Assembly: GCA_029907165.1 (NCBI GenBank)
Contig: JARYMK010000002.1
Span: 1-54,754 of the forward strand
Source of the DNA: Anaerolineae bacterium
GTDB taxonomy: Bacteria > Chloroflexota > Anaerolineae > DTLA01
DNA: 54,754 nucleotides
Direction of reading: 5' to 3'
Below the pieces are notes generated by a model. The model was not told the DNA's origin, did not search any database, and saw only the letters and a program-made list of their open reading frames with translations. The position numbers were made by a program, and so were the translations under genes. Below are positions 2,485 through 44,552 of the stretch, in pieces (the first letter of the stretch is position 1; the number at the start of each line of letters is the position of its first letter).

Positions 2485-2520
2485 GGGGCAGTCCCCGGCT
2501 ACGGGGGACTGCACACCTAC
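2481..2520. terminator. Bidirectional hairpin between convergent ftcD and the tRNA operon
   Basis: GTAGG..GCAGTCCCC-GGCTAC-GGGGACTGC..CCTAC; 9-bp inner stem plus 5-bp outer stem; no U-tract. Confidence 0.45.
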
Positions 2521-2522
2521 GC

Positions 2523-2597
2523 TGGTGGGCCCAGCCGGATTCGAACCAGCGACCAACCGGTTATGAGCCGGCCGCTCTGCCGCTGAGCTATGGGCCC
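2523..2597 (-). tRNA. tRNA-Met (anticodon CAU; elongator type, Ile2-lysidine type not excluded), CCA encoded
   Basis: Reverse complement GGGCCCATAGCTCAGCGGCAGAGCGGCCGGCTCATAACCGGTTGGTCGCTGGTTCGAATCCGGCTGGGCCCACCA folds as a cloverleaf: 7-bp acceptor stem, loop CTCATAA, TTCGAAT T-loop. Confidence 0.9.
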
Positions 2598-2612
2598 TCA
2601 AGAATAAGCAGG

Positions 2613-2684
2613 AGCGGGAGACGAGATTTGAACTCGCGACAGCCTGCTTGGAAGGCAGGTGCTCTACCCCTGAGCTACTCCCGC
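2613..2684 (-). tRNA. tRNA-Gly (anticodon UCC), no full CCA encoded
   Basis: Reverse complement GCGGGAGTAGCTCAGGGGTAGAGCACCTGCCTTCCAAGCAGGCTGTCGCGAGTTCAAATCTCGTCTCCCGCT; anticodon loop CTTCCAA. Confidence 0.9.
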
Positions 2685-2709
2685 TCGCTGCGACGATGCA
2701 TCCGCCGCG

Positions 2710-2786
2710 TGGTCGGGGTGAGAGGACTTGAACCTCCGACTTCAGCGTCCCAAACGCTGCGCGCTAGCCAACTGCGCTACACCCCG
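2710..2786 (-). tRNA. tRNA-Pro (anticodon UGG), CCA encoded
   Basis: Reverse complement CGGGGTGTAGCGCAGTTGGCTAGCGCGCAGCGTTTGGGACGCTGAAGTCGGAGGTTCAAGTCCTCTCACCCCGACCA; anticodon loop TTTGGGA. Confidence 0.9.
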
Positions 2787-2809
2787 CATTGGTGCGTGCT
2801 GCGGACATA

Positions 2810-2838
2810 AGTATAGCCCGTTTGGGGCGAGACGTCAA
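2810..2838 (-). promoter_or_regulatory. sigma70-like promoter of the tRNA Pro-Gly-Met operon
   Basis: On minus strand TTGACG-17 nt-TATACT, about 25 nt upstream of the tRNA-Pro 5' end. Confidence 0.55.
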
Positions 2839-2855
2839 AGTCAGACTGTCAGGCT

Positions 2856-2967
2856 GTCATTCTGAGGCGCGGAGCGCCGAAGAATCTCGTCAACCGAGAT
2901 GCTTCGCTTCGCTCGCAATGACACAAGCGGGGCGGTGCGAGATGCTTCGCCTCGCCCAGCATGACAG
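2856..2967. repeat. Family-1 palindromic intergenic repeat (GTCATT...AATGAC arms), copy A with one left and two right arms
   Basis: GTCATTCTGAGGCGCGGAGCGCCGAAGAATCTC, then GAGATGCTTCGCTTCGCTCGCAATGAC (2896-2922), then GAGATGCTTCGCCTCGCCCAGCATGAC (2939-2965). The CAACCGAGATGCTTCGCTTCGCTC core is shared with copy D. Confidence 0.8.
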
Positions 2968-3020
2968 TTTGGCGCGTCGCGGGAGGCCCGTCGTGCCTGT
3001 GTGAGTAAGGAGGTAACACG

Positions 3021-4901
3021 ATGGCAGAGGCAGAACGGTTTGGCTATCACAACCGCATCCTGCGGGTCAACCTGACCAGCGGGGAGATTCGCGAGGAGCA
3101 CCCCGGCGAGGAGTTCTACCGCGCCTACCTGGGGGGCCGCAACCTCATCGCCCACACGCTGCTGCGCGAAGTTCCTGCGGACGCTGATCCCCTGGGGCCG
3201 GACAATCGGCTCATCTTTGCGGCGGGCATCATCACCGGCGCGCCGGTCGCGGGCGCGGGGCGCAACAGCGTGGGCGCGCGCTCGCCGCTGACGGGCGGGT
3301 GCGGCGACGCCGAAGCGGGCGGATTCTGGGGCGCAGAACTCAAGCGCGCGGGGTTTGACGCCGTGATCGTTGAGGGCGCGTCGGACAAGCCGGTGTACCT
3401 GTACATCCGCGACGGGCAGGCCGAAATCCGTTCGGCCGAGCACCTGTGGGGGCTGCCCACCGCCGAGGCGCAGGAAGCCATCCGCCGCGAGTTGGGCGAC
3501 CACGGGGTTCGCGTGGCGCAGATTGGCCCGGCGGGCGAAAGGCAGGTGCGGCTGGCGTGCATTGCCAACGACCTGACCCACTTCTACGGGCGCACGGGCA
3601 TGGGCGCGGTCATGGGGGCCAAGCGGCTGCGCGCCATCGCTGTGCGGGGGACGAAGCCCGTGCCACTGGCTAACCCCGATGGCGTGCAAGCGCTCGCCCG
3701 CTGGCTGGCGGCCAACGACGAGAAACTCAACGCCGGCTTCCGCGACACGGGCACCGCAGGCGGCGTTCAGTACCTGAATGCCAGCGGCGGCCTGCCCACC
3801 CGCAACTTCCGGCAGGGACATTTTGAGCACGCCATCCGCATCGCCGGCGAGACCATGCGCGACGAGATTCTGGTGAACCGCGGTTCCTGCTGGGCGTGCA
3901 TCGTGCGCTGCAAGCGGGTTGTGGGAGGCGTGCACGGGTCGCGCGTGTTGCATCCTGTGTACGGCGGCCCGGAGTACGAATCGGTCGCGGCGCTGGGTTC
4001 GTGCTGCGGGGTGGGCGATTTGGCTGCTGTGGCGCTGGCCAACGAGCGATGCGCCGCCCTGGGTCTGGACACCATCGGCACGGGTATGGCTATCGCCTTC
4101 GCCATGGAGTGCTACGAGAACGGCGTCCTCACGCGAGCCGACACCGACGGGCTGGACCTGCGCTTCGGCAACGCCGAGGCCATGCTGGCGATGGTGGAAG
4201 CCATCGGCGAGCGGCGTGGGCTTGGCCACATCCTGGCGGAAGGGACTGCGCAGGCGGCGAAACTCATCGGGCGCGGGGCCGAGCGTTTCGTGATGACGGT
4301 CAAGGGGCAGGAGATTCCCATGCACGAGCCGCGCTTCAAGCACGGCCTTGGCATCGGCTACGCCGTCTCACCGACGGGCGCAGACCACATGCACGACGAT
4401 GGGCTGGTGAAGGCGGGGCGCTCCTTCCGCGAGCGGTTCGGGCCGCTGGGCATCCTGTCGCCCATGCCCGTCAACGACTTGAGCGAGCGCAAAGTCCGCG
4501 CGTTCTACTACGTGTCCACGTGGAACCATCTCTACAACAGCCTGGGCCTGTGCCAGTTCATGCCCTATTCGCCCAACCAGGTGGTGGATCTGGCGCGGGA
4601 CATCACGGGGTGGAACGTGAGCCTGTGGGAACTGATGAAGGCGTCGGAGCGGGGCCAGCAGATGGCGCGGCTGTTCAACCTGCGGTGCGGGTTCGGCGCC
4701 GACGATGACTGCCTGCCGCGCCGATTCTACGAGGCATTCGCCGACGGGCCGCTGGCAGGCGTGGCGCTGAAGCCCGATGAGCTTGAGCGTGCGCTGGCGC
4801 TGTACTACGGCATGATGGGCTGGGACGACGCGGGCCATCCCACGGCGGCGCGGCTAGCAGAGTTGGGCCTGGACTGGGCGCAGGGCGGTGTAGATGGGTA
4901 G
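3021..4901 (+). CDS. aor: Tungsten-containing aldehyde:ferredoxin oxidoreductase (AOR family)
   Basis: 626 aa; N-terminus YHNRILRVNLTSGEI..., GGRNL..., PLGPDNRLIFAAGIITGAPVAGAGR, SPLTGG are typical AOR N-domain motifs; AAGGAGG RBS before the ATG. Confidence 0.88.
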   Translation: MAEAERFGYHNRILRVNLTSGEIREEHPGEEFYRAYLGGRNLIAHTLLREVPADADPLGPDNRLIFAAGIITGAPVAGAGRNSVGARSPLTGGCGDAEAGGFWGAELKRAGFDAVIVEGASDKPVYLYIRDGQAEIRSAEHLWGLPTAEAQEAIRRELGDHGVRVAQIGPAGERQVRLACIANDLTHFYGRTGMGAVMGAKRLRAIAVRGTKPVPLANPDGVQALARWLAANDEKLNAGFRDTGTAGGVQYLNASGGLPTRNFRQGHFEHAIRIAGETMRDEILVNRGSCWACIVRCKRVVGGVHGSRVLHPVYGGPEYESVAALGSCCGVGDLAAVALANERCAALGLDTIGTGMAIAFAMECYENGVLTRADTDGLDLRFGNAEAMLAMVEAIGERRGLGHILAEGTAQAAKLIGRGAERFVMTVKGQEIPMHEPRFKHGLGIGYAVSPTGADHMHDDGLVKAGRSFRERFGPLGILSPMPVNDLSERKVRAFYYVSTWNHLYNSLGLCQFMPYSPNQVVDLARDITGWNVSLWELMKASERGQQMARLFNLRCGFGADDDCLPRRFYEAFADGPLAGVALKPDELERALALYYGMMGWDDAGHPTAARLAELGLDWAQGGVDG

Positions 4902-5568
4902 CGAGGGCCCTGTGAGAATCGTCCTGGCATCCAGAAGCCCGCGCCGCAGGGATTTCTTCCGCCTGCTGGGGTTGGATTTCGTGGCGGATTCGTCCGATGC
5001 CGCCGAGGACATCGCAGGCGACCAGACGCCCGCGGAAGCCGTGCGCGCCCTGAGCCAGCGCAAGGCCCGTGCAGTAGCGGCTCGCCACCCCGACGCGCTG
5101 GTAGTCGGCGCGGATACTATCGTCGTGCTGGACGGCGAGATTCTGGGCAAGCCCGCCGACAGGGACGAGGCCGTGGCGATGCTGCGGCGGCTGCGGGGGC
5201 AGGAGCACGATGTTCTCAGTGGCGTTACCCTCATCCTGCCGTCGGGCTTGGAAATCACTGAGTGCGCCGAGAGCCGCGTCGTGATGCGCAACTACAGCGA
5301 CGCCGAAATCGCGGCCTACGTGGACAGCGGCGACCCCATGGACAAGGCGGGCGCCTATGCCATCCAGAACCACGTCTTTCGCCCCGTGGCGCAGATTGAG
5401 GGGTGCTACGCCAACGTGATGGGCTTGCCGCTGTGCCATCTGGCGCGGGCGTTCTGGCAGGCGGGCGCGCCCCTGGATGTGGACGTGCCCATGCTGTGCC
5501 GCGCCGAGACGGGCTACCCGTGCACCGTGTATCCCCAGTACTGGCCTGGGCGCAGGCCGCGCCGTTAG
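4894..5568 (+). CDS. maf: Maf-family nucleoside triphosphate pyrophosphatase with Cys-rich C-terminal extension
   Basis: RIVLASRSPRRRDFF..., GADTIVVLDGEILGKP, KAGAYAIQ motifs. Overlaps the aor stop by 8 nt; alternative GTG start at 4912 has GAGG upstream. Confidence 0.85.
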   Translation: MGSEGPVRIVLASRSPRRRDFFRLLGLDFVADSSDAAEDIAGDQTPAEAVRALSQRKARAVAARHPDALVVGADTIVVLDGEILGKPADRDEAVAMLRRLRGQEHDVLSGVTLILPSGLEITECAESRVVMRNYSDAEIAAYVDSGDPMDKAGAYAIQNHVFRPVAQIEGCYANVMGLPLCHLARAFWQAGAPLDVDVPMLCRAETGYPCTVYPQYWPGRRPRR

Positions 5569-5692: not shown

Positions 5693-7090
5693 CTACGCAG
5701 GCCCGTGGAACGCAGGCCAGATGTAGACGCCCCAGGCCACGGCGTTGAGCAACAGCAGCGCGCCGCCCACTAGCAGGGGCAGCCTGCGCCTTGCAGATGA
5801 AGGCAGCCAGTAGGCCCATCCCGCCACAAGGCAACAGGCAATGGGGCCGATGGCGGGGAGCAGGTACCGCCCCTGCTGGGGAATGCCCTGGGCGATGGCT
5901 GCTCCGACAATCTGAAGCACGGCCAGCAGGGCCGCGCCCGCCACGAGAACTTGCGCACGCGGTAGCGGGCGGCGCGCACGGCGGAATGCGCGAATCAACC
6001 CCGCCAGCGCCGCCGCGGTCAGGCAGGCTAGCGCCGCGTACCACCCGACGCCCAGCCGCACCGTGAGCCACCCGAACGCCCCCCAGAAACTGGCGAAGGC
6101 GATGCCCAGCGCCCGCGCGTATCCGAGCAATGCGATGGGCGGCCATGCTTCCGCCGAGAACAGGCGCGAGAGCCATTCGGCGCGGATGCCGAGCAATCCG
6201 TCGGGCGAAGCGCCCGGATAGGGCCACGCCTGGCCCGGCGCGGCGAGGGGCGGGCGGGCGAGTGCCCATGCCGCCACCAGCGCGCCTGCGCCCAGGGCCG
6301 CGATGCCCGCGCCGAGCGCCCACGCTGCGCTCCGCTGACCTGCGCTAGCCGCCGCGCGCCTGTTGAGGAGCAAGAACAGCGCCCCCGTCGGCACCAGGAA
6401 CAGCGTCGTGCGCTTGGTCAGCAGGCTGGCGGCCACGAGCAGGCCGAGGACTAGCCCCCGCGCTGGCGCCAGCGGCCCGTCAACCCAGGCCGCCATGGCG
6501 CAGAGCGCGGCCCCGCCCAGCAGCGCCGCCAACGTGTCGCTGTTGGCTCCGGCGGTCATGTAGGCGCGCATGGGCAGGGAGGCTACGAAGCAAAGAGCCG
6601 CGGCTTGCAGGTGCGCTTCGCGGGGGAACGCCGCACGGGCCAGCTGAAAGACGAAGAACAGTTCCGCCAGCCCCAGGAGCACCGACAGCCCGCGCAGGCT
6701 CCGCACCTGGGCGTCCACCCCCGCGCCGCCGACAAGGCGGAGCGCACCAGCGGCTAGCACGTAGTAGCCCGGCGACGCAGCGATAGGCGGCAGGAGCACG
6801 TCGGGCGCTGTATCGGCCCAGAGCGAGGGCGGCGGAGTGCGGTGCGCGCGAATCTCCCAGAAGCGATGCCGCACGAGGGAAGCGTACACGTCCCGCTCCA
6901 ACTGCAGCGCGCCCCACACATCCGACAGCGTGGGCCAGCGACCTAGGTCGGCTACCAGGCGGGCCAACTGGTAGTGCTGCGGCTCGTCTGGGACCTGCCA
7001 CAGTGGCGTGAAGGCAAAGCAGACGGCGGAGAGAGCCAGGCCGAGGATGAGGATGGCGAGCAGATTTCGGAAGTCGCGGGCCGTATCCAC
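5693..7090 (-). CDS. Polytopic GT-C-like membrane glycosyltransferase (DUF2142 / ArnT-PMT-like)
   Basis: 465 aa, more than 10 hydrophobic helices. VPDEPQHY motif in the first external loop after TM1. Last gene of the degT-capD operon. Confidence 0.5.
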   Translation of the reverse strand: MDTARDFRNLLAILILGLALSAVCFAFTPLWQVPDEPQHYQLARLVADLGRWPTLSDVWGALQLERDVYASLVRHRFWEIRAHRTPPPSLWADTAPDVLLPPIAASPGYYVLAAGALRLVGGAGVDAQVRSLRGLSVLLGLAELFFVFQLARAAFPREAHLQAAALCFVASLPMRAYMTAGANSDTLAALLGGAALCAMAAWVDGPLAPARGLVLGLLVAASLLTKRTTLFLVPTGALFLLLNRRAAASAGQRSAAWALGAGIAALGAGALVAAWALARPPLAAPGQAWPYPGASPDGLLGIRAEWLSRLFSAEAWPPIALLGYARALGIAFASFWGAFGWLTVRLGVGWYAALACLTAAALAGLIRAFRRARRPLPRAQVLVAGAALLAVLQIVGAAIAQGIPQQGRYLLPAIGPIACCLVAGWAYWLPSSARRRLPLLVGGALLLLNAVAWGVYIWPAFHGPA

Positions 7091-7101
7091 CGCCGACGGT
7101 T

Positions 7102-8976
7102 CTATGACCCGCCTTCCAGCAGGGGCACTTCGGCTTCCTGGAAGTCGGGCACCAGTTCGCGCAGCGTCCTGCGGATGGCCACCTCGTCCATCTGCGCTGC
7201 GTATTCGGCCAAGAGGTCAATCATCCGGTACAGGCGGTCGCCGTCCACCGGCACGGACTGGGCGATGAAGATTTTCTCGTACACAGTGGCTGTACGCTGC
7301 TCGTCGCGGGTGAACAGTTCCTCATGGAGTTTCTCGCCCGGACGCAGGCCCGTGTACACGATTTCAATGTCGCGGCCCAGTTTCAGTCCCGACAGTTCCA
7401 CCAGGTCCTTGGCCAAATCCACGATGCGGATCGGGTCGCCCATGTCCAGGGCGTAGATTTGGCCCGGCGTGGCCAGTGAAGCCGCCTGAATGACGAGTTG
7501 GACGGCCTCGGGGATGGTCATGAAGAAGCGGGTCATCTCCGGGTGGGTGATGGTGATGGGGCCACCGGCGGCGATCTGCTCCTTGAACAGCGGGACCACA
7601 CTACCGCGGCTACCGAGCACGTTGCCAAAGCGCACGGCCACGAACGCGCGTCCGCTTCGCATCGCGGCCTCTTGCACGATCATCTCGGCGATGCGTTTGG
7701 TCGCGCCCATGATGCTGGTAGGGCGCACGGCCTTGTCCGTGGAGATCAGCACAAACCGCTCCACGTCGGCGGTCAGCGCGGCCTGGACAACGTTTCGCGT
7801 GCCCAGCACGTTGTTGGTGATCGCCTCGTCCACGTTGTGTTCCATCAGCGGCACGTGCTTGTGCGCCGCCGAATGGAACACGATCTGCGGGCGGTAGCGT
7901 TGCAGGATCGCGTGAATCTTGTTCGCGTCGCGGATGTCGGCGATGATCACGTCCCGCGGCAGCGACGGGAACTTGCGGCACAGTTCCTGCTCAATGTTGT
8001 AGATGCTGTTCTCGCCGTGGCCCAACAGGATGAGGTGGCCGGGGCGGAACCGCGCGATCTGGCGGCACAATTCAGACCCGATGGACCCGCCCGCGCCGGT
8101 TACCAGGATGGTGGCCCCGGAGATGAAGCCGGCAATTTCCTCCAGGTTGACGCTGGTCGGTTCGCGGCGCAGCAGGTCTTCCAATTGCACCTCGCGGATT
8201 TGGCTGAGCCAGACCTTGCCGTTCAGGAGTTCAAACAGGCCGGGCAACGTGCGGAATCGGATGCCTGCGCTCTCGCAGATGCTGACGATTTCGCGGATGG
8301 ATTTGCCGGGCGCTGTGGGCATGGCGATGAGCGCCTCGTCCACGTGCAGCCGCCGCGCCAGTTCGGGGATGTCCCTGCGCGAACCGTAGACCTTGACGCC
8401 GTGGATGTAGTTGCCGATTTTCCGTTCGTCATCGTCCACGAACCCCACCGGCAGCATATTGATTTCGGGGTTGTTGTGCATCTCGCGGACGATCATGGCA
8501 CCCGCATCCCCGGCGCCGATGACCAGGATGCGACGCGGCACGCCACCCTGGCCGATCCTACTCTTGCGGCCGGTCGTGATATCCCAGGCGATCTTGGACG
8601 AAAAACGGACGCCCCCAAGGAGAAGGATGTTCAGCAACCAGTCGATGATGAGCATGGGGCGGGAGAAGCCGGAGATGATCTTCAGGGGGCGCATGACGCC
8701 GTAGATGAGGATGGCCAACACCGCCGACGCGATGCTCGCCGCCGCGATGATGGCCAGCACTTCGTGGCTGCCCGCGTACTGCCACATGCGCCGGTACAGG
8801 CCGAACAGGTGGAATGCCAGTGGGTAGAGGATGAGCAGGGCGGGCACGACCGGCCACCAGCGCTGGAAGTAACTCCACGCGGTGAACGTGTCAAAGCGCA
8901 GGAAATAACTCAGGAGAAGCGCCAACAGCAGCAAGACCAGGTCAGCGATAAGCAAATACCGATTCCTGAGCCACAT
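7102..8976 (-). CDS. Membrane-anchored nucleotide-sugar 4,6-dehydratase/epimerase (CapD/PglF/WbpM family)
   Basis: 624 aa; N-terminal TM helices, then two Rossmann regions (ILVIGAGDAG and ILVTGAGGSIGSEL); family-typical YGATKR-like region MGATKRIAE. Confidence 0.88.
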   Translation of the reverse strand: MWLRNRYLLIADLVLLLLALLLSYFLRFDTFTAWSYFQRWWPVVPALLILYPLAFHLFGLYRRMWQYAGSHEVLAIIAAASIASAVLAILIYGVMRPLKIISGFSRPMLIIDWLLNILLLGGVRFSSKIAWDITTGRKSRIGQGGVPRRILVIGAGDAGAMIVREMHNNPEINMLPVGFVDDDERKIGNYIHGVKVYGSRRDIPELARRLHVDEALIAMPTAPGKSIREIVSICESAGIRFRTLPGLFELLNGKVWLSQIREVQLEDLLRREPTSVNLEEIAGFISGATILVTGAGGSIGSELCRQIARFRPGHLILLGHGENSIYNIEQELCRKFPSLPRDVIIADIRDANKIHAILQRYRPQIVFHSAAHKHVPLMEHNVDEAITNNVLGTRNVVQAALTADVERFVLISTDKAVRPTSIMGATKRIAEMIVQEAAMRSGRAFVAVRFGNVLGSRGSVVPLFKEQIAAGGPITITHPEMTRFFMTIPEAVQLVIQAASLATPGQIYALDMGDPIRIVDLAKDLVELSGLKLGRDIEIVYTGLRPGEKLHEELFTRDEQRTATVYEKIFIAQSVPVDGDRLYRMIDLLAEYAAQMDEVAIRRTLRELVPDFQEAEVPLLEGGS

Positions 8977-8991
8977 CTCTCTACAAACGTC

Positions 8992-10170
8992 CTAACTCAA
9001 TGCTTTGCGTATGGCGGCGCTGTGGCGCTGGATGCGACGGATAGCCTCGCAGATGCGCTGCACTGTGTCGGGTTCCATGTGCGAGAAGATGGGCAGACTC
9101 ACGCATTCCTTGGCGAGGCGCTCCGTTACAGGCAGCCGACCGCGATAACGCTCGCCCACGTGCCGATACGCCGTGTGCAGGTGAACGGGCGGGTCGTAGT
9201 AGTTTCGGGTGTCCACACCCTCGGCCCGCAATGCCCGGACCAGCGCGTCGCGCGACAGGCCGAATTCGGATTCCACGACGCGAATGGAGAAATCCTTATA
9301 CGAGCAGCGGTCGCGCGGGTCTATCTTCTGGAAGTAAATGCCTTCCACACCCTGCAACCCCTGCCGATAGATGTCCACGAGGTGATTTCGGCGTTTGGCG
9401 TTGTCTTCCAGCATCCGCAGCGAATGCAGGCCGAGGATGGCGCTGAACTCTTGCATGCGGGCGTTGAGGCCGGGGAACTCGGTGTCGTAGTTGCCTGGGT
9501 TGCCGTACTCGCGGCCCACTTCTATACGGCGCGCGATTTCCGCGTTGTTGGTGGCGACAATGCCCCCTTCGCCGGTTACGAGCAGTTTCGTCGGGCTGGA
9601 ACTGAAGACCTCGGCCTCACCGTGGCTGCCCACCGGCTTCCCGCGGTACAGCGTGCCGAACCCGTGAGCAGCGTCAAACAGGAGTTTCACGCCAGCGCGC
9701 CGCGCCACCGATTCCAGGCGCTCCACGTCGGCGGGATTGCCGAACACGTGGGTGGCGACGATGGCTGACGTGGCCGGTGTGATGGCGGCAGCCGCGGCGT
9801 CCGGGTCCAGGTTCCACGTCTCAGGGTCCACGTCGGCGAACACAGGCGTGAGGCCGCACCACGCAAGGGGGTGCACCGTGGCCATGAAGGTGAAACTGGG
9901 GACGACGACCTCGCCGACCAGGTCGGCGGCCTTGTAGGTGAGGGTGAGGCCGGTAGTGCAACTGGAGACGCCGACGGCGTGCCTGGTCCCCAAGTGCCTG
10001 GCGACGGCCTGCTCAAAGGCGGCCAGGTACTTGCCCTTGGTTACCATGCCGGTCTGGAAGATTTCCCCGATTTCGCCTGCGACTTCGGAGAACTCGGGCA
10101 GCGTGGGTCTCATGAAGGGCAACGGCGATTCAAAAAGAGGAGTACCCCCAAGCACCGCAGGCGTGGACAT
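8992..10170 (-). CDS. DegT/DnrJ/EryC1/StrS-family PLP sugar aminotransferase
   Basis: MSTPAVLGGTPLF..., SCTTGLTLT, FSSSPTKLLVTGEGG (PLP-Lys region). GGAGGAG lies 8 nt before the ATG at 10170; the ORF-track start at 10200 is less likely. Confidence 0.88.
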   Translation of the reverse strand: MSTPAVLGGTPLFESPLPFMRPTLPEFSEVAGEIGEIFQTGMVTKGKYLAAFEQAVARHLGTRHAVGVSSCTTGLTLTYKAADLVGEVVVPSFTFMATVHPLAWCGLTPVFADVDPETWNLDPDAAAAAITPATSAIVATHVFGNPADVERLESVARRAGVKLLFDAAHGFGTLYRGKPVGSHGEAEVFSSSPTKLLVTGEGGIVATNNAEIARRIEVGREYGNPGNYDTEFPGLNARMQEFSAILGLHSLRMLEDNAKRRNHLVDIYRQGLQGVEGIYFQKIDPRDRCSYKDFSIRVVESEFGLSRDALVRALRAEGVDTRNYYDPPVHLHTAYRHVGERYRGRLPVTERLAKECVSLPIFSHMEPDTVQRICEAIRRIQRHSAAIRKALS

Positions 10171-10208
10171 TCCCCATCTCCTCCAGGCGAAAGGTCTCAA
10201 GCGGGACC

Positions 10209-10237
10209 AGTATACTCTCCCGCAGTGTAAACGTCAA
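10209..10237 (-). promoter_or_regulatory. sigma70-like promoter of the degT-capD-GT-C operon
   Basis: Minus strand TTGACG-17 nt-TATACT. Confidence 0.55.
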
Positions 10238-10265
10238 GCACGCGCTGCGGTTATGCCAAGTTATG

Positions 10266-11075
10266 TTAGCCCTGTCGCATAGAGTGAAGGATGGCTTCCA
10301 GCACGCCGCCCGCGATGGCCAGCGCCTTGTCCGAGATGGTGAAGCAGTGCTCGCGGGCGGCGCGGGGGTCCACGTCGCCCACCTTCATGTTGGCGTGCAC
10401 GGTCAGCCCATCGTGGAGCAGCCCCCGCAGGACGCCCTTCAGCCGCACGCGCACCGGCTCATTGTCCACATACGCGACGACGTCGCCCACGTCCACCATG
10501 TCGCCGATTTCGCGCACACCGCGGAACACCCCTGCGCAGGGGGCGCGCACCACTCGCTGCTCGGCGTAGCCGCCGACCTCGCCCGGGATTCCCGTGTTGG
10601 GCAAGGCTTGCCCTTGCCAGATCACGCGCCCCAGGGTGTGCCCCCGCATGGTTTCTACCACGGCGTGGACGTCTTCGCCTGCGGTGAACCCCGGCCCCAG
10701 CCCAATGACCAGGGGCGCGTCGGTGATGCGCGTGCCCAGGTTGCGCTTGGCCAGGATGGCGTCCACCACCACATCCGGGCGCAGTTCGCAGATGATGGCT
10801 GCCTCGGGGTCCACGACGACGGGGAGAACGCCCTCGGCCCAGGCGGCCCGAACGCCCTCCGCGCCTTCCACCTTGCGGCCTCGCACGCCGTCCACGACCG
10901 TCTCACCTTCCCAGACGGCCGTGGCGAAGGCTACCTTGCGGCGGATCACGGTGGGGGCGGGGATTTCGGTAACCACGACCTGGAACCCGCAGTTCCACAG
11001 CCGCCAGGCCACGCCCGAAGCCAGGTCGCCGCCCCCCTTCACGACAACGGTAACCGTCTTGCCCAGCACGGTCAT
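10266..11075 (-). CDS. yqeB: YqeB-family protein (selenium-dependent molybdenum hydroxylase system accessory protein, short form equal to the C-terminal half of E. coli YqeB)
   Basis: VVVKGGGDLASGVAWRLWNCGFQVVVTEIPAPTVIRRKVAFA and VVDAILAKRNLGTRITDAPLVIGLGPGFTAGEDVHAVVETMRGHTLGRVI match my recollection of the E. coli YqeB C-terminal region. ATG at 11075 has GGGGAGGTG upstream. Confidence 0.8.
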   Translation of the reverse strand: MTVLGKTVTVVVKGGGDLASGVAWRLWNCGFQVVVTEIPAPTVIRRKVAFATAVWEGETVVDGVRGRKVEGAEGVRAAWAEGVLPVVVDPEAAIICELRPDVVVDAILAKRNLGTRITDAPLVIGLGPGFTAGEDVHAVVETMRGHTLGRVIWQGQALPNTGIPGEVGGYAEQRVVRAPCAGVFRGVREIGDMVDVGDVVAYVDNEPVRVRLKGVLRGLLHDGLTVHANMKVGDVDPRAAREHCFTISDKALAIAGGVLEAILHSMRQG

Positions 11076-11097
11076 TGCGGACACCTCCCCGCTTGCG

Positions 11098-12168
11098 CTA
11101 CGGCTGGATGGTCGGCGTTGGCGGCAATGCGGCGTTGTACCGAGCGGCCAGCGCGGCGAGTTCGGGGTCGTCGGCGTACTCCTCACTGAGGGGGATTATA
11201 CCCGCTCTCGCCGAGATAACGTTGCCCTCGGCGTCAAAGTCCACGGTGATCTCGCCAAGCCACTCGCCGCCATAGCCCGCCTGGCCGATGACGGTGTTGT
11301 TGAGTTGCAGCGTCTCCTGCAGCAGGTCGTAGGAGTGACCTCCGACGATGGCCGTGATGCCGTTTACCTCGGTGGCGATCTTACGGTCCATGACGTTGCC
11401 CAGGTGCGACAGGATGACGACGGCGTCCACCTTGTCGGCGCGGGCCTTGGCGACATACTCGCGGGCGGTCTCCACCGGGTCCTTGGTCGTAATGTTCGTT
11501 GACGGCGGCACGAAGGACTTGAACGTGTCGTCGGCAGGTGTCAGGCCGATGATGGCAACCTTGCGCCCGCCCACATCTTGCACGACGTAAGGCGTGAAGA
11601 CCGGCTTGCCCGAGTCGGCGTACACCAGGTTGGCCGACAGGAAGGCGAACTTGGCCTCGCGCGAGCGGTCCAGGAGTTCCGGGAAGTGCGCCAGGTCGCG
11701 TTCACCGATGGCCATGGCGTTGTACTTCATCAGGTTCATGGCTTCGGTGAGGGCCTTGCCCTGGCTGATGTCGGAGACCGGCTGGCCGAAGAGCGCGTCG
11801 CCCGCGTCCAGGACGAGCAAGTACGGGGTCTTGGCGCGGTAGTTCTTGATGGCGGTAGCCCGACGGGCCACACCCCCCTTGGGGGGTCGTCAGCCGCAGG
11901 GGTCTATGTAGCCCGCAACGTCGGTGGTGTGCAGGATGGTGAGGGTCCACGGGCCGGTGGGCCGTGCGGCGTTGCGGCGGATGAGCGCCTGGGCGGTGAT
12001 GAGCGCCGCGACCACGACCAGCGCCAGTGCAATCGGCGCGATCCAGCGTTTGATTCCGGCGCTTGGGGTGGCCTTCTTCGGTTTCGGCTTGGCTTCGCCC
12101 TTCTTGGCGGTGGATTGGGCAGGGCGAGGGGCCTGCTGCGTCTGTTTCTTCTTGCGTTTCTTGGCCAC
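11098..12168 (-). CDS. Membrane-anchored calcineurin-like metallophosphoesterase / 5'-nucleotidase N-domain protein with one in-frame TGA (11892-11890): candidate selenoprotein (alternatively a pseudogene)
   Basis: ORFs 12168-11890 and 11871-11098 share one frame, separated by TGA plus 6 sense codons. The read-through product is ...LTILHTTDVAGYIDPCG-U-RPPKGGVARRATAIKNYR...LDAGDALFG...AIGERD...LSHLG...GGHSY. GTG start has GAGGTG upstream. Confidence 0.6.
11855..11889 (-). promoter_or_regulatory. Two hairpins directly 3' of the in-frame UGA (SECIS-like)
   Basis: mRNA: UGA CG ACCCCCC-AA-GGGGGGU then GUGGCCC[GUC]GGGCUAC (7-bp stem, G/U-containing apical loop about 26 nt after the UGA). Confidence 0.4.
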
Positions 12169-12332
12169 GCTTCACCTCACAAGTGGATTGCTTGACGGAA
12201 CCAGTCCCAGGTGGCTAGATGGCTCCGCTGACAGATGCCCATCGCGGAGCCAGTGCCGCGCTCGTAATGATACCACGTTACGACCGTTTCTCCCAAAAGT
12301 CGGGGTTGCGCCCGTGCACTAGGCGGGCAGAA

Positions 12333-14264
12333 CTAGGGGAGCAGGAACGCAATCATCCAGGCGGCCAGCAGGGTGAACAGCCCGGCAGTCACAAGTTTGA
12401 TGGTGCCGGCGCGCCGGTTGATGAACTGCCCCAGCTGCTCCGACGTCGTGCCCCAGTAGGCCATGAGGAACACGATGACCAGCGGCAGAATGAATGCGAG
12501 GTTGTACACGAGCAGGTAGGCCAACGCCCGCACCCTCAACGCTGGCACGCCGAGGACGAACAGGATGGTGGGCAGGTAAACCTGTCCGGTGCAGGCCAGT
12601 TCTATCAGGGACACCATCGCGCCGGTGATGAGTGCGATCCCTGCGATGGCCCGCGCGTTCGCCCCTTCGCGGATAACTCGGTTGATCCAGCGGCGCATCC
12701 GCGTGGGGAGTTTCAGTTTCATCTCTTCGGGCCGCCCGCGCCGCGCCTGGTACCAGTCGTACAGGCTGCCCAGCGCCAAGAGCAAGCACAGCGCCGCCGT
12801 GAAGCCGTACAGGTAGCGGCTGATGGCCGGCAGGAACGGCAGGCTGGCTAGGAACTTGAGCAGACCCACGCCGACGCCCAGGTAGGTCAGGAAAACGCCC
12901 AGGGCGAACATGCCCCCCACCAGCAGGATGTCGCGGCCCTTGCGCCCCGTGAAGGCCAGGTACGAGATGAAGAACACGATGGTGGCGAAGGCGCACGGGT
13001 TCAGCCCGTCCACCAGACCCGCCGCCACGACCGTGAGCGCGCCGAACGACCGGAAGCGGATCAGGATGCTCTCGCCCGCCTGCGACAGGTCTTCCTGCTC
13101 CTGCCAGTAGGCTTCGCTGCCGGTCGCCGCGTACTTCTTTACGACGTTCTCCAGCGTCTGGACGTTGATGCCCTCGCCCAGCAGGAAATCCGAACCCACA
13201 AACGCCGCGGGCGTGGTGAGGCGCTTGTTCAGCGGCACGCCGGTGCGTTCGCCCAGCCACTCGGCCAGTGCGGCCTGCTCCTTGATGTCGTACTCGTGAA
13301 TCTGCAACTGCGGGTACTTGCTCTGCAGGTACTTCAGGTCGTACTGGGCGCGATCGCACTCGTGGCAACCCACCTGGTAGAAGTAGGCCAGGTGGATGGT
13401 GGACTGCTGGACGGTCGGCGTGCCCGATGGCGCGGCGGGGCCCGTCAGTTTGGGGAAGTCCACGCCGCCCTCGTTCATGTAGTATTCCACCAGCGCGGCC
13501 AGTTGTTCGCGGGCCGCTTGCTCGCCGTGCAGCACATGGTCGCCAACGAAGATGACGGGGAATGCCCCTTCGCCCGTGCCAAACTGCCGCTCCAGCGCCG
13601 TGAGCAGGTCGTAGTCGGCGGGGGATTTCTCCACATCGCGGGCGTCCACCACCAACTGGCGGTCGTATCGCTCCTGCAACGGCCCGAGCACCTCATCCTG
13701 CACGCGGTGGCATTCGGGGCAGAGGCTGCTCCAGAAGAAATACATCTTCACGACGGGGTCGCCCTCGTCGCAGATGTGGCACGCCTTGGGTGTGGGTTTG
13801 ACGCCGGTAGGCGGCCACGTGGCAAGCCCCGTCTGGTCGCCGTATCCCGCGGGCCAGTCCACGCCGCCCTGCGCCACGTAGGCCTGGATCAGCGCGGGCA
13901 GGTTGTCGCGAATCTCGTCGGCCCCGAACAGCACGCGGTCGCCGATGAACAATTCGGGCACCACACCCTTGTCGGGCGGGACGCCGTGCACCTGCTCCAT
14001 GCGCAGCAGGAGTTCGTAGTTCGCTGGCGGGGTGATTTCCACCTTCGCGATTTCCAGTTGCAAGCCGTACTGCGCCTGAAGGGGCGGCAGGACTTGTTCC
14101 AGCACCGTGTGGCAGACCGGGCACGTGTCCGAGTAGAACAGCACGGCGCGGACGACCGGCTGCTGGGCGTGGATGGCCGTCGGCATCAGGGCCAGCGCCA
14201 GGATGGCGATCAGGGTGGACAGGCGGAAGAGGTGTTTCGTTTGGGACACGGTTATAGACTTCAA
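12333..14264 (-). CDS. Secreted triple thioredoxin/glutaredoxin-like domain fused to a CcdA/DsbD-type transmembrane thiol-disulfide electron transporter
   Basis: Signal peptide KHLFRLSTLIAILALALMPTAIHA. Three roughly 110-aa repeats carry CPVC, CPEC and CHEC, plus an extra CHIC. The C-terminal 6-TM domain has LNPCAF and ELACTGQ Cys motifs. TTG start at 14264 has GAGG 6 nt upstream; the 871-aa ORF-track extension overlaps the upstream gene and is spurious. Confidence 0.75.
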   Translation of the reverse strand: MKSITVSQTKHLFRLSTLIAILALALMPTAIHAQQPVVRAVLFYSDTCPVCHTVLEQVLPPLQAQYGLQLEIAKVEITPPANYELLLRMEQVHGVPPDKGVVPELFIGDRVLFGADEIRDNLPALIQAYVAQGGVDWPAGYGDQTGLATWPPTGVKPTPKACHICDEGDPVVKMYFFWSSLCPECHRVQDEVLGPLQERYDRQLVVDARDVEKSPADYDLLTALERQFGTGEGAFPVIFVGDHVLHGEQAAREQLAALVEYYMNEGGVDFPKLTGPAAPSGTPTVQQSTIHLAYFYQVGCHECDRAQYDLKYLQSKYPQLQIHEYDIKEQAALAEWLGERTGVPLNKRLTTPAAFVGSDFLLGEGINVQTLENVVKKYAATGSEAYWQEQEDLSQAGESILIRFRSFGALTVVAAGLVDGLNPCAFATIVFFISYLAFTGRKGRDILLVGGMFALGVFLTYLGVGVGLLKFLASLPFLPAISRYLYGFTAALCLLLALGSLYDWYQARRGRPEEMKLKLPTRMRRWINRVIREGANARAIAGIALITGAMVSLIELACTGQVYLPTILFVLGVPALRVRALAYLLVYNLAFILPLVIVFLMAYWGTTSEQLGQFINRRAGTIKLVTAGLFTLLAAWMIAFLLP

Positions 14265-14272
14265 GGAATGCC

Positions 14273-14800
14273 TCAATCGACCAACCCCAGAATCTCCTCC
14301 AGGCGCGCTCGCTTGTCGGCGAACTCCGCTTCGTAGAGGCGCACGCAGCGGGTTAGTTCCGTCGTCCCCGCCACCAGTTTGCTGGCGAAGACGAAGCACG
14401 TGGGGTCGCCGCACTGCTTGCAGTTCCCGCCCGGCAGGAGTTTGTAGATTTCCATCACAGTGGGCTGGTAGCGCTTCTCGTTGGAAGGCACGATCTCGTG
14501 CCGCCTGTCCCAGACCCTGTTGATCTCGTCCAGAATGCGCTCGGCCACGCGCTGGGCCTCTTGGCGGTCCTCCAAGTTGCTGATGGCGACCTCGTGCGGA
14601 CGGAGGGTATAGCGACGGCCTCCCCGCACCATCGTCAGGATGTGGTTTTCGTGGTCGTAGATGGCATTCTTCCACAGCGTATTGAGGTAGGGCATGACCT
14701 CGCTGATGTCCTCCTGGAGCCGCACAAATGCGCTCCAGCGATCCGATCCTGGGTCGCATGGCGGCGAGATAACTTCCAGGTCGTACTCCTTGCACAGCAT
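14273..14800 (-). CDS. Cytoplasmic Fe-S protein: uncharacterised N-domain plus RnfB/AcsC-type Fe-S cluster domain (CxxCGxxxC)
   Basis: C-terminus has LLPGGNCKQCGDPTCFVFASKLVAG (PF04060-type motif as in the RnfB N-terminus). GGGAGG lies 8 nt before the ATG. The gene stops 8 nt before the Trx-CcdA start. Confidence 0.65.
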   Translation of the reverse strand: MLCKEYDLEVISPPCDPGSDRWSAFVRLQEDISEVMPYLNTLWKNAIYDHENHILTMVRGGRRYTLRPHEVAISNLEDRQEAQRVAERILDEINRVWDRRHEIVPSNEKRYQPTVMEIYKLLPGGNCKQCGDPTCFVFASKLVAGTTELTRCVRLYEAEFADKRARLEEILGLVD

Positions 14801-14889
14801 TGTGCATCCTCCCTACGTGCTTGCATCGGTATGGCTCGGAAATGGGGGCTTGGCCGTAGGCCGGCGACCTGGGTGTGCCGCCCGATTGA

Positions 14890-14917
14890 AGTATACCCCG
14901 TGCTGCCCCGCTGTCAA
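14890..14917 (-). promoter_or_regulatory. sigma70-like promoter in front of the Fe-S / Trx-CcdA genes
   Basis: Minus strand TTGACA-16 nt-TATACT. An ATGCAT-centred imperfect palindrome (TGTCAAATATGCATTGTTCTGA on plus) overlaps the -35. Confidence 0.55.
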
Positions 14918-14960
14918 ATATGCATTGTTCTGAATGTCTCGGCGGCAAAAGTAAAAGCCG

Positions 14961-15338
14961 TCAGTCTCTGGAGCACACGGGGCAGGGGCATCCTGGCACT
15001 GGCCCCTCCTCCGACGTGGGGAATTGCACCGACTCCCCGAATTTGGCCGTTGCCCAATTGCGGCTCGCGGCGATGAGGTCCATCACCCGCTCGTCGGTGA
15101 GCCGATAGTACATGAGCGTGCCGTCGCGGCGTTCGGCGATGAGGCCGGCCTCGCGCAGGATAGCCAGTTGCTGGGAGATGTAGGGCTGCCGCTGCCCCAG
15201 CGCCGCAGTGAGGTGGCAGACGCACGCTTCCCCGCACTGGGCCAGCATCTCCAGGATGCGGAGGCGCACCGGGTGGGATAGTACCTTGTGCAGTTTCGCC
15301 ATAGCGGTGTAGCCGCTGGCCAGCGTTTTTGCTCTCAT
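14961..15338 (-). CDS. ArsR/SmtB-family metalloregulator with alpha3 CVC motif and C-terminal CPCPVC
   Basis: LSHPVRLRILEMLAQCGEACVCHLTAALGQRQPYISQQLAILREAGLI (wHTH with ELCVCDL-like site); C-terminus GPVPGCPCPVCSRD. ATG at 15338 lies 7 nt after a -10 box, so the mRNA is probably leaderless. Confidence 0.8.
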   Translation of the reverse strand: MRAKTLASGYTAMAKLHKVLSHPVRLRILEMLAQCGEACVCHLTAALGQRQPYISQQLAILREAGLIAERRDGTLMYYRLTDERVMDLIAASRNWATAKFGESVQFPTSEEGPVPGCPCPVCSRD

Positions 15339-15345
15339 ACCCAGT

Positions 15346-15373
15346 AGGATACACCGCGCCGCGGCCTTGTCAA
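15346..15373 (-). promoter_or_regulatory. sigma70-like promoter of arsR-like gene (leaderless transcript likely)
   Basis: Minus strand TTGACA-16 nt-TATCCT, then 7 nt to the ATG. Confidence 0.5.
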
Positions 15374-15378
15374 GTTGC

Positions 15379-15399
15379 GGGTGAGGGCTGACCTCACCC
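15379..15399. promoter_or_regulatory. Perfect 8-bp inverted repeat just upstream of the arsR -35 (possible operator or hairpin)
   Basis: GGGTGAGG-gctga-CCTCACCC. Confidence 0.3.
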
Positions 15400-15535
15400 C
15401 CTCGATCCCCTTTCCGCGTGCGGAGAGAGGGAAGTCGGCGGCTGGGGGCGAGGCGGATACACCCACGCGGAACAAACGCCCCCACGCTGACGTCTCAAAG
15501 GCGCACACACGACAGTCTGTGGCAAGGAGGGTGAA

Positions 15536-17005
15536 ATGAGATACGTTCGTTGGTTTCGCGTTCTGTCCGTAGTGGCGGTGCTAGCGCTGGCCGCATGTTC
15601 CGCCGGCAGCAACCTCGCGGCGCGGCTGTCGCCCACCCCTGCGCATGCCGAGTCGCCCGGCGTGGAGTTGACGGTGTACAACTCGGCCCTGGGCCTCGTG
15701 AAAGACCGCCGACCGATGACGCTGGAGAAAGGCCTTAACTTCGTCCGCTTCTCCGACGTGGCGGCGGGGATTGACCCCACATCGGTGCATTTCCGCTCCC
15801 TGACCGACCCCGAAGGCACCACCGTGCTGGAGCAGAACTATGAGTACGATGTCGTGGGGTCGGCTAAACTGCTGCACAAGTACCTAGACCAGAAGATCAC
15901 GCTGGTTACCGAGGATGGGAGCGTGTACACCGGCAAACTGCTCAGCGGCGCCGATGACATCATCCTGGAGGGTACCGATGGCAAGGTAACCGTCGTCAAG
16001 GCCAATCAGGTGCGCGAGTTCCAGTTCCCGGCGCTCCCCGAGGGCCTCATCACCAAGCCATCGCTCCTGTGGCAGTTAGACGCGGCCAAGTCTGGTACCC
16101 ATAACGTGGAGGTAACGTACCTCACAAGTGGCATCACTTGGTCCGCGGACTACGTGGTGGTGCTGGCCGCCGACGACGCCTCGCTGGGGCTGAACGGCTG
16201 GGTTACCGTGGACAACCGCAGCGGCGCGACGTACAAGGACGCGCGGCTGAAACTCATCGCGGGCGACATCCACCGCGTCCAGCCCCCGCAGGAACTGGGG
16301 GTCTATGACCTGGTGCGGAAGGGCGCCCCTGCGCCGACGCCTGAACAGGTGGCCGAGCGCGAGTTCTTTGAGTACCATCTGTACGAGGTGCAGCGGCCCG
16401 TAACGGTCAAGGACCAGCAGACCAAGCAGATTGAGTTCGTAGGCGCGGAAGGTGTCAAGGCCGAGAAGATTTACGTCTACGATGGCCTGGGCGGCGGGTC
16501 GTGGTTCTACTACGGCCCCATCACCGACCCCACCTATGGCCCCACAAGCAACAAGAAGGTCATGGTGCTGGTGGAGTTCAAGAACTCCGAGGCCGACGGG
16601 CTGGGCGTACCGCTGCCTAAGGGCCGCGTGCGCGTGTACAAGGAGGATACGGGCGGCGGGACCGAGTTCGTGGGCGAGGATGCCATTGACCACACGCCCA
16701 AGGACGAGCGTGTGCGCCTCTACCTGGGCGACGCCTTTGACATCGTGGGTGAGCGCAAGCAGACCGACTTCAAGAAACTCGGCGAACGCACCATAGAGGA
16801 GAGTTTTGAGATTAGCGTCCGCAACCACAAGAGCGAGGCAGTGGAGGTGCGCGTGGTGGAGCACCTGTTCCGCTGGAGCGAGTGGGAGATTACGGCCAAG
16901 AACCACGACTACACCAAACTGGACGCCAGCAGCGTGGAGTTCCGCGTGAACGTGCCCAAGGACGGCGAGGCGAAGATCACCTACACCGTGCGGTATCGGT
17001 GGTAA
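15536..17005 (+). CDS. DUF4139/DUF4140 (TIGR02231, MuiA-like) lipoprotein
   Basis: Lipobox VLALAAC. VELTVYNSALGLVKDRRPMTLEKGLNFVRFSDVAAGIDPTSVHFRSL matches the family N-terminal pattern. AAGGAGGG RBS. Confidence 0.7.
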   Translation: MRYVRWFRVLSVVAVLALAACSAGSNLAARLSPTPAHAESPGVELTVYNSALGLVKDRRPMTLEKGLNFVRFSDVAAGIDPTSVHFRSLTDPEGTTVLEQNYEYDVVGSAKLLHKYLDQKITLVTEDGSVYTGKLLSGADDIILEGTDGKVTVVKANQVREFQFPALPEGLITKPSLLWQLDAAKSGTHNVEVTYLTSGITWSADYVVVLAADDASLGLNGWVTVDNRSGATYKDARLKLIAGDIHRVQPPQELGVYDLVRKGAPAPTPEQVAEREFFEYHLYEVQRPVTVKDQQTKQIEFVGAEGVKAEKIYVYDGLGGGSWFYYGPITDPTYGPTSNKKVMVLVEFKNSEADGLGVPLPKGRVRVYKEDTGGGTEFVGEDAIDHTPKDERVRLYLGDAFDIVGERKQTDFKKLGERTIEESFEISVRNHKSEAVEVRVVEHLFRWSEWEITAKNHDYTKLDASSVEFRVNVPKDGEAKITYTVRYRW

Positions 17006-43034: not shown

Positions 43035-43148
43035 GTCATTGCGAGGAGCGCAGCGACGAAGCAACCTCGGCAACCGAGATGCTTCGCTTCGCTCAGCACG
43101 ACAGATAGGGCTGGGATTGCTTCGGGCACTCCGTGCCCTCGCAATGAC
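43035..43148. repeat. Family-1 palindromic repeat, copy D (three arms)
   Basis: GTCATTGCGAGGAGCGCAGCGACGAAGCAACCTC / GAGATGCTTCGCTTCGCTCAGCACGAC / GATTGCTTCGGGCACTCCGTGCCCTCGCAATGAC. Confidence 0.8.
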
Positions 43149-43176
43149 AACTCACAATTCTCCCTGTGGTCAAGTA

Positions 43177-44397: not shown

Positions 44398-44480
44398 CCC
44401 ACTCCTTGCTCGTGCCATTTCCTCGTAACGACGGTTTCGTAGGGCGGCTTTCCATAGCCGCCGTGGGCCTCCCCCTTGTT

Positions 44481-44552
44481 GTCATTGCGAGCGAAGCTAA
44501 GCAATCTCCCATCGCGCAGATTGCTTCGGGCGCTGCGCGCCCTCGCAATGAC
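44481..44552. repeat. Family-1 palindromic repeat, copy E
   Basis: GTCATTGCGAGCGAAGCTAAGCAATCTCC...GATTGCTTCGGGCGCTGCGCGCCCTCGCAATGAC. Confidence 0.8.

Follow-up and report, generated by a model that had tools for sequence, protein, structure and literature searches.

A short-form UshA-like selenoprotein gene beside a thioredoxin-CcdA-like membrane fusion gene in an Anaerolineae genome

Do five consecutive genes that point the same way in an Anaerolineae genome make up one redox module, or do they belong to several units, only some of which work together? The genes occupy positions 10266-15399 on the minus strand of a 54,754-nucleotide stretch of contig JARYMK010000002.1 (Anaerolineae bacterium, assembly GCA_029907165.1; ~66% GC), the whole of which we call the window. 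In the order of transcription they are arsR, a gene for an iron-sulfur (Fe-S) protein, a gene for an exported fusion of three thioredoxin (Trx) domains with a CcdA-like membrane domain (Trx3-CcdA-like), a gene for a UshA-like protein, and yqeB. An initial annotation of this DNA had joined all five in a single extracytoplasmic thiol-selenol module. The genes and their coordinates proved correct, and the functional reading is supported in part: the pairing of Trx-CcdA-like with UshA-like genes recurs and looks functional, whereas the five-gene module is not conserved. We read the region as three adjacent transcription units (arsR; FeS-TrxCcdA; UshA-yqeB), the second of which would encode a reducing conduit and the third its selenoprotein client, and we regard this reading as standing at an even chance. 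It offers a testable functional lead for one UshA-like subfamily whose members always contain selenocysteine (Sec), are exported, have mostly lost the metal site and occur repeatedly inside envelope reductant-delivery operons.

A selenocysteine codon in a short-form UshA-like gene

The UshA-like gene (11098..12168, minus strand; 356 codons) contains a single in-frame TGA at 11890..11892 (minus strand), directly after the codons for Asp-Pro-Cys-Gly and with the same frame continuing on both sides. An in-frame stop, together with database entries that are truncated, is what a decaying pseudogene might present. The DNA of short-form homologues was therefore compared at this position in 20 species-level genomes and seven metagenome loci, the close relatives of the window coming from the metagenome scan only. 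All 27 homologues, at 35-95% identity, have TGA and never another stop at the identical codon. It is almost always preceded by Pro-Cys-Gly, the frame upstream is conserved (a signal, lipoprotein or anchor sequence with an ILHTND motif), and the protein sequence is conserved on both sides of the codon.

Twenty nucleotides after the UGA lies a hairpin of the selenocysteine insertion sequence (SECIS) type, GUGGCCCG(U/G)CGGGCUAC, at 11855..11871 on the minus strand, with a G-N-C apical loop (full form GUGGCCCGNCGGGCCAC). Its six core pairs are kept in 27/27 sequences and they covary: one pair changed from CG to UA seven times and from CG to GC once, and another from GC to UA once. Each of these changes falls on a third codon position of the Val-Ala-Arg-Arg-Ala-Thr stretch and is synonymous. 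Of 500 column shuffles none reached the covariation score, and slid registers fell to 40-54% pairing; the control of non-Sec homologues for this ARRA hairpin consisted of four usable sequences only. The conserved UGA and the hairpin have the layout of a bacterial SECIS element, and on this comparative evidence the TGA is a genuine Sec codon, which bears out the Cys-Gly-Sec candidate of the initial annotation. With the stop always TGA at one codon, the frames intact and conserved on both sides and the downstream hairpin covarying, decay into a pseudogene is barely credible, and we exclude it. Another hairpin, directly after the UGA in the Pro-Pro and Gly-Gly codons, was rejected: because it pairs in only 73% of cells and its register shifts, we take it as a by-product of coding.

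Nearly every close homologue in the databases is ~250 aa long, covers only the C-terminal 70% of the query and starts with (M/L)ARRAT, because gene callers restart just after the TGA. Public entries of the short-form selenoprotein subfamily are thus systematically mis-annotated, being truncated at the UGA. Rfam scans of the window and of 10000-15600 returned three tRNAs only and no SECIS family, and no tRNA-Sec lies within the window. In two sister lineages selA adjoins the UshA-like gene (10761-12146 in locus L007, 3586-4971 in locus L010).

The window protein carries a P-C-G-U motif, with Sec from the in-frame UGA, and matches the model UshA_like_PCGU (NF041198) at 180 bits against a cut-off of 275, over model positions 8-271 of 519 only. 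It ends ~260 residues after the Sec, has no match to PF02872 (the C-terminal 5'-nucleotidase domain) and scores 18.9 on PF00149, below the cut-off of 21.5. UshA-like (COG0737) Cys-x-Sec selenoproteins were listed in 2008, 2022 and 2026 (PMC2398784, PMC9312934, PMC13188914); given these listings and the NF041198 model, the Sec family is not new, and the window protein is, to judge by its residues and length, a distinct short form of this known group.

A conservation profile of 32 short-form sequences, from which two outlying loci were excluded, retained T(ND), PCGU, GG-ARRA, LD-G, GY-A, R-EA-F-LS-N and PY. The metal-ligand motifs (the DxH histidine, GNHE and GH) are not conserved in this subfamily, while HTNDxH is retained by all non-Sec homologues and, in the full-length ones that were inspected, GNHE and GGHSH as well. 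Every short-form member seen has Sec, and all are restricted to Chloroflexota-type metagenome-assembled genomes. The short form looks like a phosphoesterase scaffold whose dimetal site has been exchanged for a Cys-Gly-Sec centre; since the metal ligands are mostly lost in the subfamily, its chemistry is probably thiol- or selenol-based and not phosphoester hydrolysis.

The centre is predicted to face outward, as had been proposed. In the window a Lys/Arg-rich N-terminus is followed by one transmembrane (TM) helix, making an N-in anchor, and homologues have lipoprotein or signal peptides. Two short-form paralogues, each with its own TGA, stand close together in L104 (7380-8409 and 12117-12701), L001, L006 and L013; those of L104 flank the Trx-CcdA-like gene.

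The membrane fusion and its linkage to UshA-like genes

The proposed source of reductant for this centre is encoded next to it, at 12333..14264 on the minus strand. In the 643-aa product a signal peptide is followed by three thioredoxin/glutaredoxin-like CxxC domains and then by a membrane domain of six predicted helices. Its family numbers more than 1000 homologues with two or three Trx domains, the named ones all from Anaerolineae/Chloroflexota. The invariant residues are C300 and C303 (the third CxxC), C424 (in NPC) and C558 (in ELACTGQ). The last two are the intramembrane Cys of the CcdA-like domain (residues ~398-643, 12336..13073 on the minus strand), are encoded at 12993-12995 and 12591-12593, and are unchanged in 24 sequences. 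When the membrane domain was aligned by hhalign with canonical CcdA from neighbouring genes, the match had 91.4% probability (E 8.9e-7), NPC was paired with GPC and ELACTGQ with SQCATP, and both membrane Cys (in TM1 and TM4) were aligned. The canonical CcdA that adjoins the fusion gene in relatives itself scores 113 bits on DsbD_TM. The positively charged loops of the domain fit six helices with both termini outside. We regard the domain as a divergent, remote CcdA-like protein that would act as a conduit.

Two samples of loci bear on the linkage. One is anchored on Trx-CcdA-like genes (80 metagenome loci, many of them short) and the other on UshA short-form genes (24 loci, from 20 species-level genomes and four further contigs). 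Around the Trx-CcdA-like anchors the partner genes all lie on the anchor's strand; over all 80 loci they comprise the Fe-S gene in 13, a strong ArsR in 12, canonical CcdA in 15, a TlpA-like thioredoxin in 13, the UshA short form in seven and YqeB in two. For the 15 loci that extend 4 kb or more to either side of the anchor the corresponding counts are 6, 6, 6, 6, 2 and 1. From the UshA side, a Trx-CcdA-like gene lies within 10 kb in 3/24 loci (3/20 at species level), namely L001, L008 and L042; canonical CcdA and a TlpA-like gene are present in two of the 24, and the Fe-S gene and YqeB in none. With one to three copies in a 4-5 Mb genome, we estimate chance linkage at ~1% or less, and three in 24, although a small share, is well above this.

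In the UshA tree, the genes linked to Trx-CcdA-like genes are spread over five or more separate branches. They stand, in some lineages, in tight operons with a further thioredoxin and canonical CcdA, and in L107, L008 and L100 the gaps are 0-37 nt while the gene orders differ. L107, a distant locus (55% identity in the conduit protein, ~35-40% in UshA), has a co-directional string of Trx2-CcdA-like, Trx_3, TlpA-like, CcdA, UshA(Sec), Fe-S and ArsR genes, without YqeB. We found no description of the Trx-CcdA-like/UshA-like linkage in the literature.

Two relatives of the window, L087 and L086, are ~80-84% identical to it in nucleotide sequence and syntenic with it all the way from ArsR to CapD. 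The three differ in what separates the fusion gene from UshA: in L087 a TlpA-like thioredoxin gene and a canonical CcdA gene, both intact (6677-7843), in L086 only a decayed CcdA remnant from which both Cys are gone (4719-5360), and in the window a 164-nt spacer (12169-12332) with both genes absent. They form a decay series from L087 through L086 to the window; in the ancestral block the FeS-TrxCcdA and UshA units had the TlpA-like and CcdA genes between them. Between the Fe-S and fusion genes, L087 has Usp, DUF5714 and LplA-like genes and L086 has at least Usp; in L088, at 76% identity, the Fe-S gene lies downstream of the fusion gene.

This company invites another explanation. In System II cytochrome c maturation the reductive arm normally consists of CcdA and a thioredoxin of the TlpA/ResA type, and the CcdA, TlpA-like and Trx-CcdA-like proteins might all be general envelope-reducing or cytochrome c maturation parts, to which the UshA-like protein is incidental. 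A CcdA and TlpA-like pair does follow the Trx-CcdA-like gene in 6/15 long loci. Yet no ResB/ResC-type families were among the neighbour genes scanned or clustered, and in L107, L008 and L100 the UshA gene is inserted inside these very operons, so that we hold such an origin to be improbable.

Several observations weigh against a conduit that serves the selenoprotein. No Trx-CcdA-like or CcdA gene is near UshA in 21/24 UshA-anchored loci, and the UshA neighbours are heterogeneous by clade, comprising SufCD, class-V aminotransferases (cysteine-desulfurase-type), TusA/DsrE/NifU, SelA, an ArsR-ArsP-Trx_3 set and UvrAB. Most Trx-CcdA-like loci are without UshA, and further clients of the conduit must therefore exist. 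The linked loci L100, L101, L104 and L107 were found by Trx-CcdA anchoring, which biases that sample. In the window itself the Trx-CcdA-like and UshA-like genes are 164 nt apart, with a promoter-like site between them and no operator motif shared with arsR. The assignment of the membrane domain is also at issue. The isolated domain had no match to Pfam DsbD_TM (PF02683) or DsbD_2 (PF13386) at E <= 0.01, and Foldseek found nothing significant with its AlphaFold model, which has a moderate predicted local distance difference test (pLDDT) score of 70, the best TM-score being that to the CcdA structure 5vkv (0.39/0.43). When PDB sequences were searched with a profile of the Trx-CcdA family, the only matches were weak ones to thioredoxins, with no CcdA among them. 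Of the exported Trx3-CcdA fusion first annotated, then, the signal peptide, the three CxxC domains and the 8-nt gap to the Fe-S gene stand, and CcdA is a remote homologue only, missed by the Pfam DsbD models.

The main rival built on such points is adjacency without coupling, in which the Trx-CcdA-like, Fe-S and ArsR proteins form an arsenic or thiol-stress set for envelope thiols and the UshA-like and yqeB genes are mere neighbours. Members of the Fe-S family do occur in ars islands without any UshA gene, most UshA genes lie elsewhere, and the window has separate promoter-like sites with no shared operator. What mere neighbourhood would not lead one to expect is linkage in at least five separated UshA lineages, in rearranged orders and with gaps of 0-37 nt, far above the ~1% of chance. 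We consider uncoupled adjacency unlikely, though a rival to be taken seriously, and retain the reading of a conduit with a selenoprotein client.

Genes of sulfur and selenium trafficking stand near UshA short forms in some clades (L174, 8814-12285; L001, 5687-7361; L042, 2315-3481), among them class-V aminotransferase/cysteine desulfurase, NifU, TusA, DsrE-like, DUF1858 and SufCD genes.

Fe-S protein, ArsR, YqeB and the predicted transcription units

What, then, of the other three genes? The Fe-S gene (14273..14800, minus strand) encodes a cytoplasmic protein of 175 aa, with an N-terminal domain of ~100 aa and a C-terminal PF04060 domain of [4Fe-4S] type (43 bits against a cut-off of 23). The fusion gene starts with TTG at 14264, 8 nt after the Fe-S stop codon, with a GAGG ribosome-binding site at that stop, and the two genes are predicted to be translationally coupled. 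The Fe-S protein had been called RnfB-type. That label holds for its PF04060 domain, the only one in common; on the RnfB model TIGR01944 the protein scores 23.9 bits against a cut-off of 68.7, and its cluster domain is most like the N-terminal one of the corrinoid iron-sulfur protein (CFeSP). In an AlphaFold model with pLDDT 90.6, the C-terminal domain superposes on 2ycl_A, the CFeSP N-terminal [4Fe-4S] domain, with probability 1.0, 40% identity and a root-mean-square deviation of 1.4 A, and the N-terminal domain has a weak match to a TBP-like alpha/beta fold. Of the five Cys that are invariant in the family, four belong to PF04060 and the fifth to a PPCxPG loop in the N-terminal domain. NCBIfam also has a MobB/Fe-S fusion family, to which a weak match was seen.

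The arsR gene (14961..15335, minus strand) encodes an ArsR/SmtB-family repressor that scores 53 bits on PF01022 and 97 bits on NCBIfam HTH_metalloreg (NF033788). Its HTH_5 domain and its ACVCH motif (CVC in helix alpha-3) agree with the As(III)/Sb(III)-type sensor first described, and it has in addition a C-terminal GCPCPVC tail. Both the CVC motif and a C-terminal GCxCPxC cluster are conserved in 11/13 ArsR homologues beside Trx-CcdA-like genes (L086-L154), and the window protein appears to belong to a distinctive subfamily marked by the CVC site and, at the C-terminus, by CxCxxC.

The Fe-S gene, this distinctive ArsR and the Trx-CcdA-like gene recur together in Anaerolineae, usually inside arsenic-type islands. 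The Fe-S and Trx3-CcdA-like pair is recurrently accompanied there by an ArsP permease, small thioredoxins, DGC, ACR3 and ArsC, and the contexts of the Fe-S family as a whole are arsenic-type islands with ArsR, ArsP_1 permease, Thioredoxin_3, DGC, ACR3 (SBF) and low-molecular-weight-phosphatase ArsC. In L168/L169, L096, L146 and L147 the Trx-CcdA-like gene directly follows the Fe-S gene. L002 has a PF04060 Fe-S gene and then moeA and a gene of ArsR type (2074-4203), with the Trx-CcdA-like gene ~4 kb downstream of these. We found no literature description of the Fe-S family together with ArsR. This defines two uncharacterised, abundant Chloroflexota families that recur with an unusual ArsR in islands of the arsenic type: the Trx-CcdA-like fusion, with its more than 1000 database matches, and the ~175-aa PF04060 Fe-S protein.

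Recurrence in islands is one matter and common control in the window another. The minus strand has four sigma-70-like sites where 0.9 were expected, each inside an intergenic gap: upstream of arsR (15346..15373, TTGACA-16-TATCCT), upstream of the Fe-S gene (14890..14917, TTGACA-16-TATACT, 11/12 matches), upstream of the UshA-like gene (12267..12296, TTGGGA-18-TATCAT with an extended TG) and upstream of degT (10209..10237), where the site marks the downstream boundary of the cluster. Predicted transcription units are therefore arsR, FeS-TrxCcdA, UshA-yqeB and degT onward; no terminator-like sites were found in the gaps between the five genes (10266-15399). Just upstream of the arsR site lies a palindrome, GGGGTGAGG-N5-CCTCACCC (15379-15399), and over the -10 element of the UshA-like site lies another, TCGTAACG-N6-CATTACGA (12259-12286), possibly a site for a regulator and separate from the first. 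K-mer and palindrome searches of the four promoter regions turned up no convincing shared ArsR operator, the arsR and UshA palindromes being different; with separate promoter-like sites as well, common control by ArsR is not indicated. In the UshA-like leader there is also an inverted repeat (12220-12252) whose 9-bp arms match perfectly and enclose a loop of 15 nt.

The last gene, yqeB (10266..11075, minus strand), is a full-length member of the family for maturation of the selenium-dependent molybdenum cofactor (TIGR03309, 380 bits against a cut-off of 220). It starts 22 nt after the UshA-like stop, the gap originally noted, and is probably co-transcribed with the UshA-like gene in the window. 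Among the loci compared, its adjacency to the cluster is confined to L086 and L087: it is found in 0/24 UshA-anchored loci and 0/78 other Trx-CcdA-anchored ones. As L088, at 76% identity, lacks it and the adjacency is limited to a close clade, the adjacency is young and lineage-specific; YqeB is a lineage-specific passenger and not a conserved partner. The selenium-cofactor trait is the co-occurrence of YqeB with YqeC and SelD (PMC9312934). The annotated genes on either side of the cluster in the window include no YqeC, SelD or molybdenum hydroxylase. As YqeB is missing from all other loci examined, the proposed tie of the set to selenium-cofactor biology is not indicated.

These results also bear on the full five-gene reading, in which a single unit under a metalloid-sensing ArsR would supply the conduit with electrons from the Fe-S protein, the selenoenzyme would be the conduit's client, and YqeB would connect them all to selenium-cofactor metabolism. 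The genes are co-directional with short gaps (8 nt for FeS-TrxCcdA, 22 nt for UshA-yqeB), their order is kept in L086 and L087, and in L172 a xanthine-dehydrogenase-type molybdenum hydroxylase lies 3 kb from UshA. The conservation that the initial annotation called for is present in part, in the Trx-CcdA/UshA link of at least five lineages and in the recurrence of Fe-S and CVC ArsR genes with Trx-CcdA; the five-gene set itself occurs only in L086 and L087. YqeB is absent outside the close clade, even from L088, no shared operator was found, the flanking genes annotated in the window offer no YqeC, SelD or hydroxylase, and thioredoxin, not an Fe-S protein, is the known electron donor for CcdA and DsbD. 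We therefore think the full module very unlikely.

The molybdenum hydroxylase operon of L172 (12090-15721) is a single case, too little to tie UshA to YqeB-type cofactor biology. The cluster is flanked downstream by DegT and CapD polysaccharide genes and upstream by a divergent DUF4139 gene, both unrelated to it. A tungsten-type aldehyde:ferredoxin oxidoreductase gene lies within ~6-8 kb of the cluster in the window (3021-4901), in L086, in L087 and in the distant L107 (10518-11678); its proximity may be due to chance, because the family is probably abundant in these genomes. Upstream of arsR, a 65-nt stretch (15390-15453) is 82-83% identical to an inverted stretch ~10 kb away in L086 (10442-10506) and L087 (12940-13004) and may be a small mobile or repeated element. 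A short intergenic repeat family ending ...CTCGCAATGACA occurs in both orientations at 2883-2966, 43063-43149 and 44468-44553 of the window.

Proposed electron delivery and known systems

How would a conduit with a selenoprotein client work? By analogy with CcdA/DsbD (PMC2631958, PMC3322552, PMC3914529), reducing equivalents would cross the membrane through the two intramembrane Cys of the Trx-CcdA-like protein. They would pass to the fusion's own three exported CxxC domains and from there to the outward-facing UshA-like protein, where a selenenylsulfide at the Cys-Gly-Sec centre would be reduced. For the Fe-S protein the role could be that of cytoplasmic donor, or else of a sensor working with ArsR. 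The identities of the genes, the signals for Sec decoding, the remote homology to CcdA and the recurring linkage are established by the comparisons; the direction of electron flow, the client relationship, the donor role of the Fe-S protein and control by ArsR are what we infer. Where electron supply from the Fe-S protein is concerned, the observation behind it is recurrent co-location alone.

A more ambitious version would make this an undescribed extracytoplasmic selenoenzyme system of Anaerolineae. In it, a metallophosphoesterase scaffold with an obligate Cys-Gly-Sec centre would be kept reduced by a fusion of two or three Trx domains with the CcdA-like domain, with or without TlpA-CcdA; a CFeSP-like [4Fe-4S] protein would be the low-potential donor, a two-site ArsR would be the switch, and the substrate would be an external soft metalloid or chalcogen (As, Sb, Se, Te, polysulfide). 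We put this forward as a doubtful extension. We also weighed the SAO system of Haft and Gwadz (bioRxiv 10.1101/2022.07.06.499078) and rejected it, as no component of it is present.

Each part of the locus resembles something known and departs from it. Like the UshA-like Cys-x-Sec group of NF041198, the selenoprotein has a metallophosphoesterase N-domain with P-C-G-U just after the first metal-binding motif and an in-frame UGA; unlike that group, the window's short form covers only the N-terminal half of the model, without the C-terminal 5'-nucleotidase domain, and its subfamily has lost the DxH histidine, GNHE and GH ligands. The Fe-S protein shares the four-cysteine cluster domain of the CFeSP N-terminus (2ycl), but it has a ~100-aa uncharacterised domain with a fifth invariant Cys and lacks a corrinoid-binding domain. 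The repressor has the HTH_5 fold and the helix alpha-3 CVC of R773-type ArsR, with relatives beside ArsP, ACR3 and ArsC, whereas it adds a C-terminal GCxCPxC and its cluster contains no ars transporter or reductase. YqeB is a full-length TIGR03309 member, as in YqeB/YqeC maturation of selenium-dependent molybdenum hydroxylases, but stands among annotated genes that include no YqeC, SelD or hydroxylase.

The membrane fusion may be compared with the DsbD and ScsB hubs (PMC2631958, PMC3322552), which likewise join a transmembrane thiol-disulfide conduit to exported domains of thioredoxin fold and often have client genes close by; the window fusion differs in having all Trx domains N-terminal, a core of six predicted helices instead of eight and no Pfam DsbD_TM match. 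The arrangement as a whole resembles CcdA-Etrx1/2-MsrAB2 of Streptococcus pneumoniae (PMC3914529) and CcdA-ResA/TlpA, where a two-cysteine conduit supplies an exported thioredoxin and this in turn an exported redox enzyme encoded next door. What is proposed here, and what would be new among envelope reducing systems of the CcdA/DsbD type, is a client that is a Cys-Gly-Sec selenoprotein, a divergent conduit fused to two or three Trx domains of its own, and Fe-S and ArsR proteins as partners.

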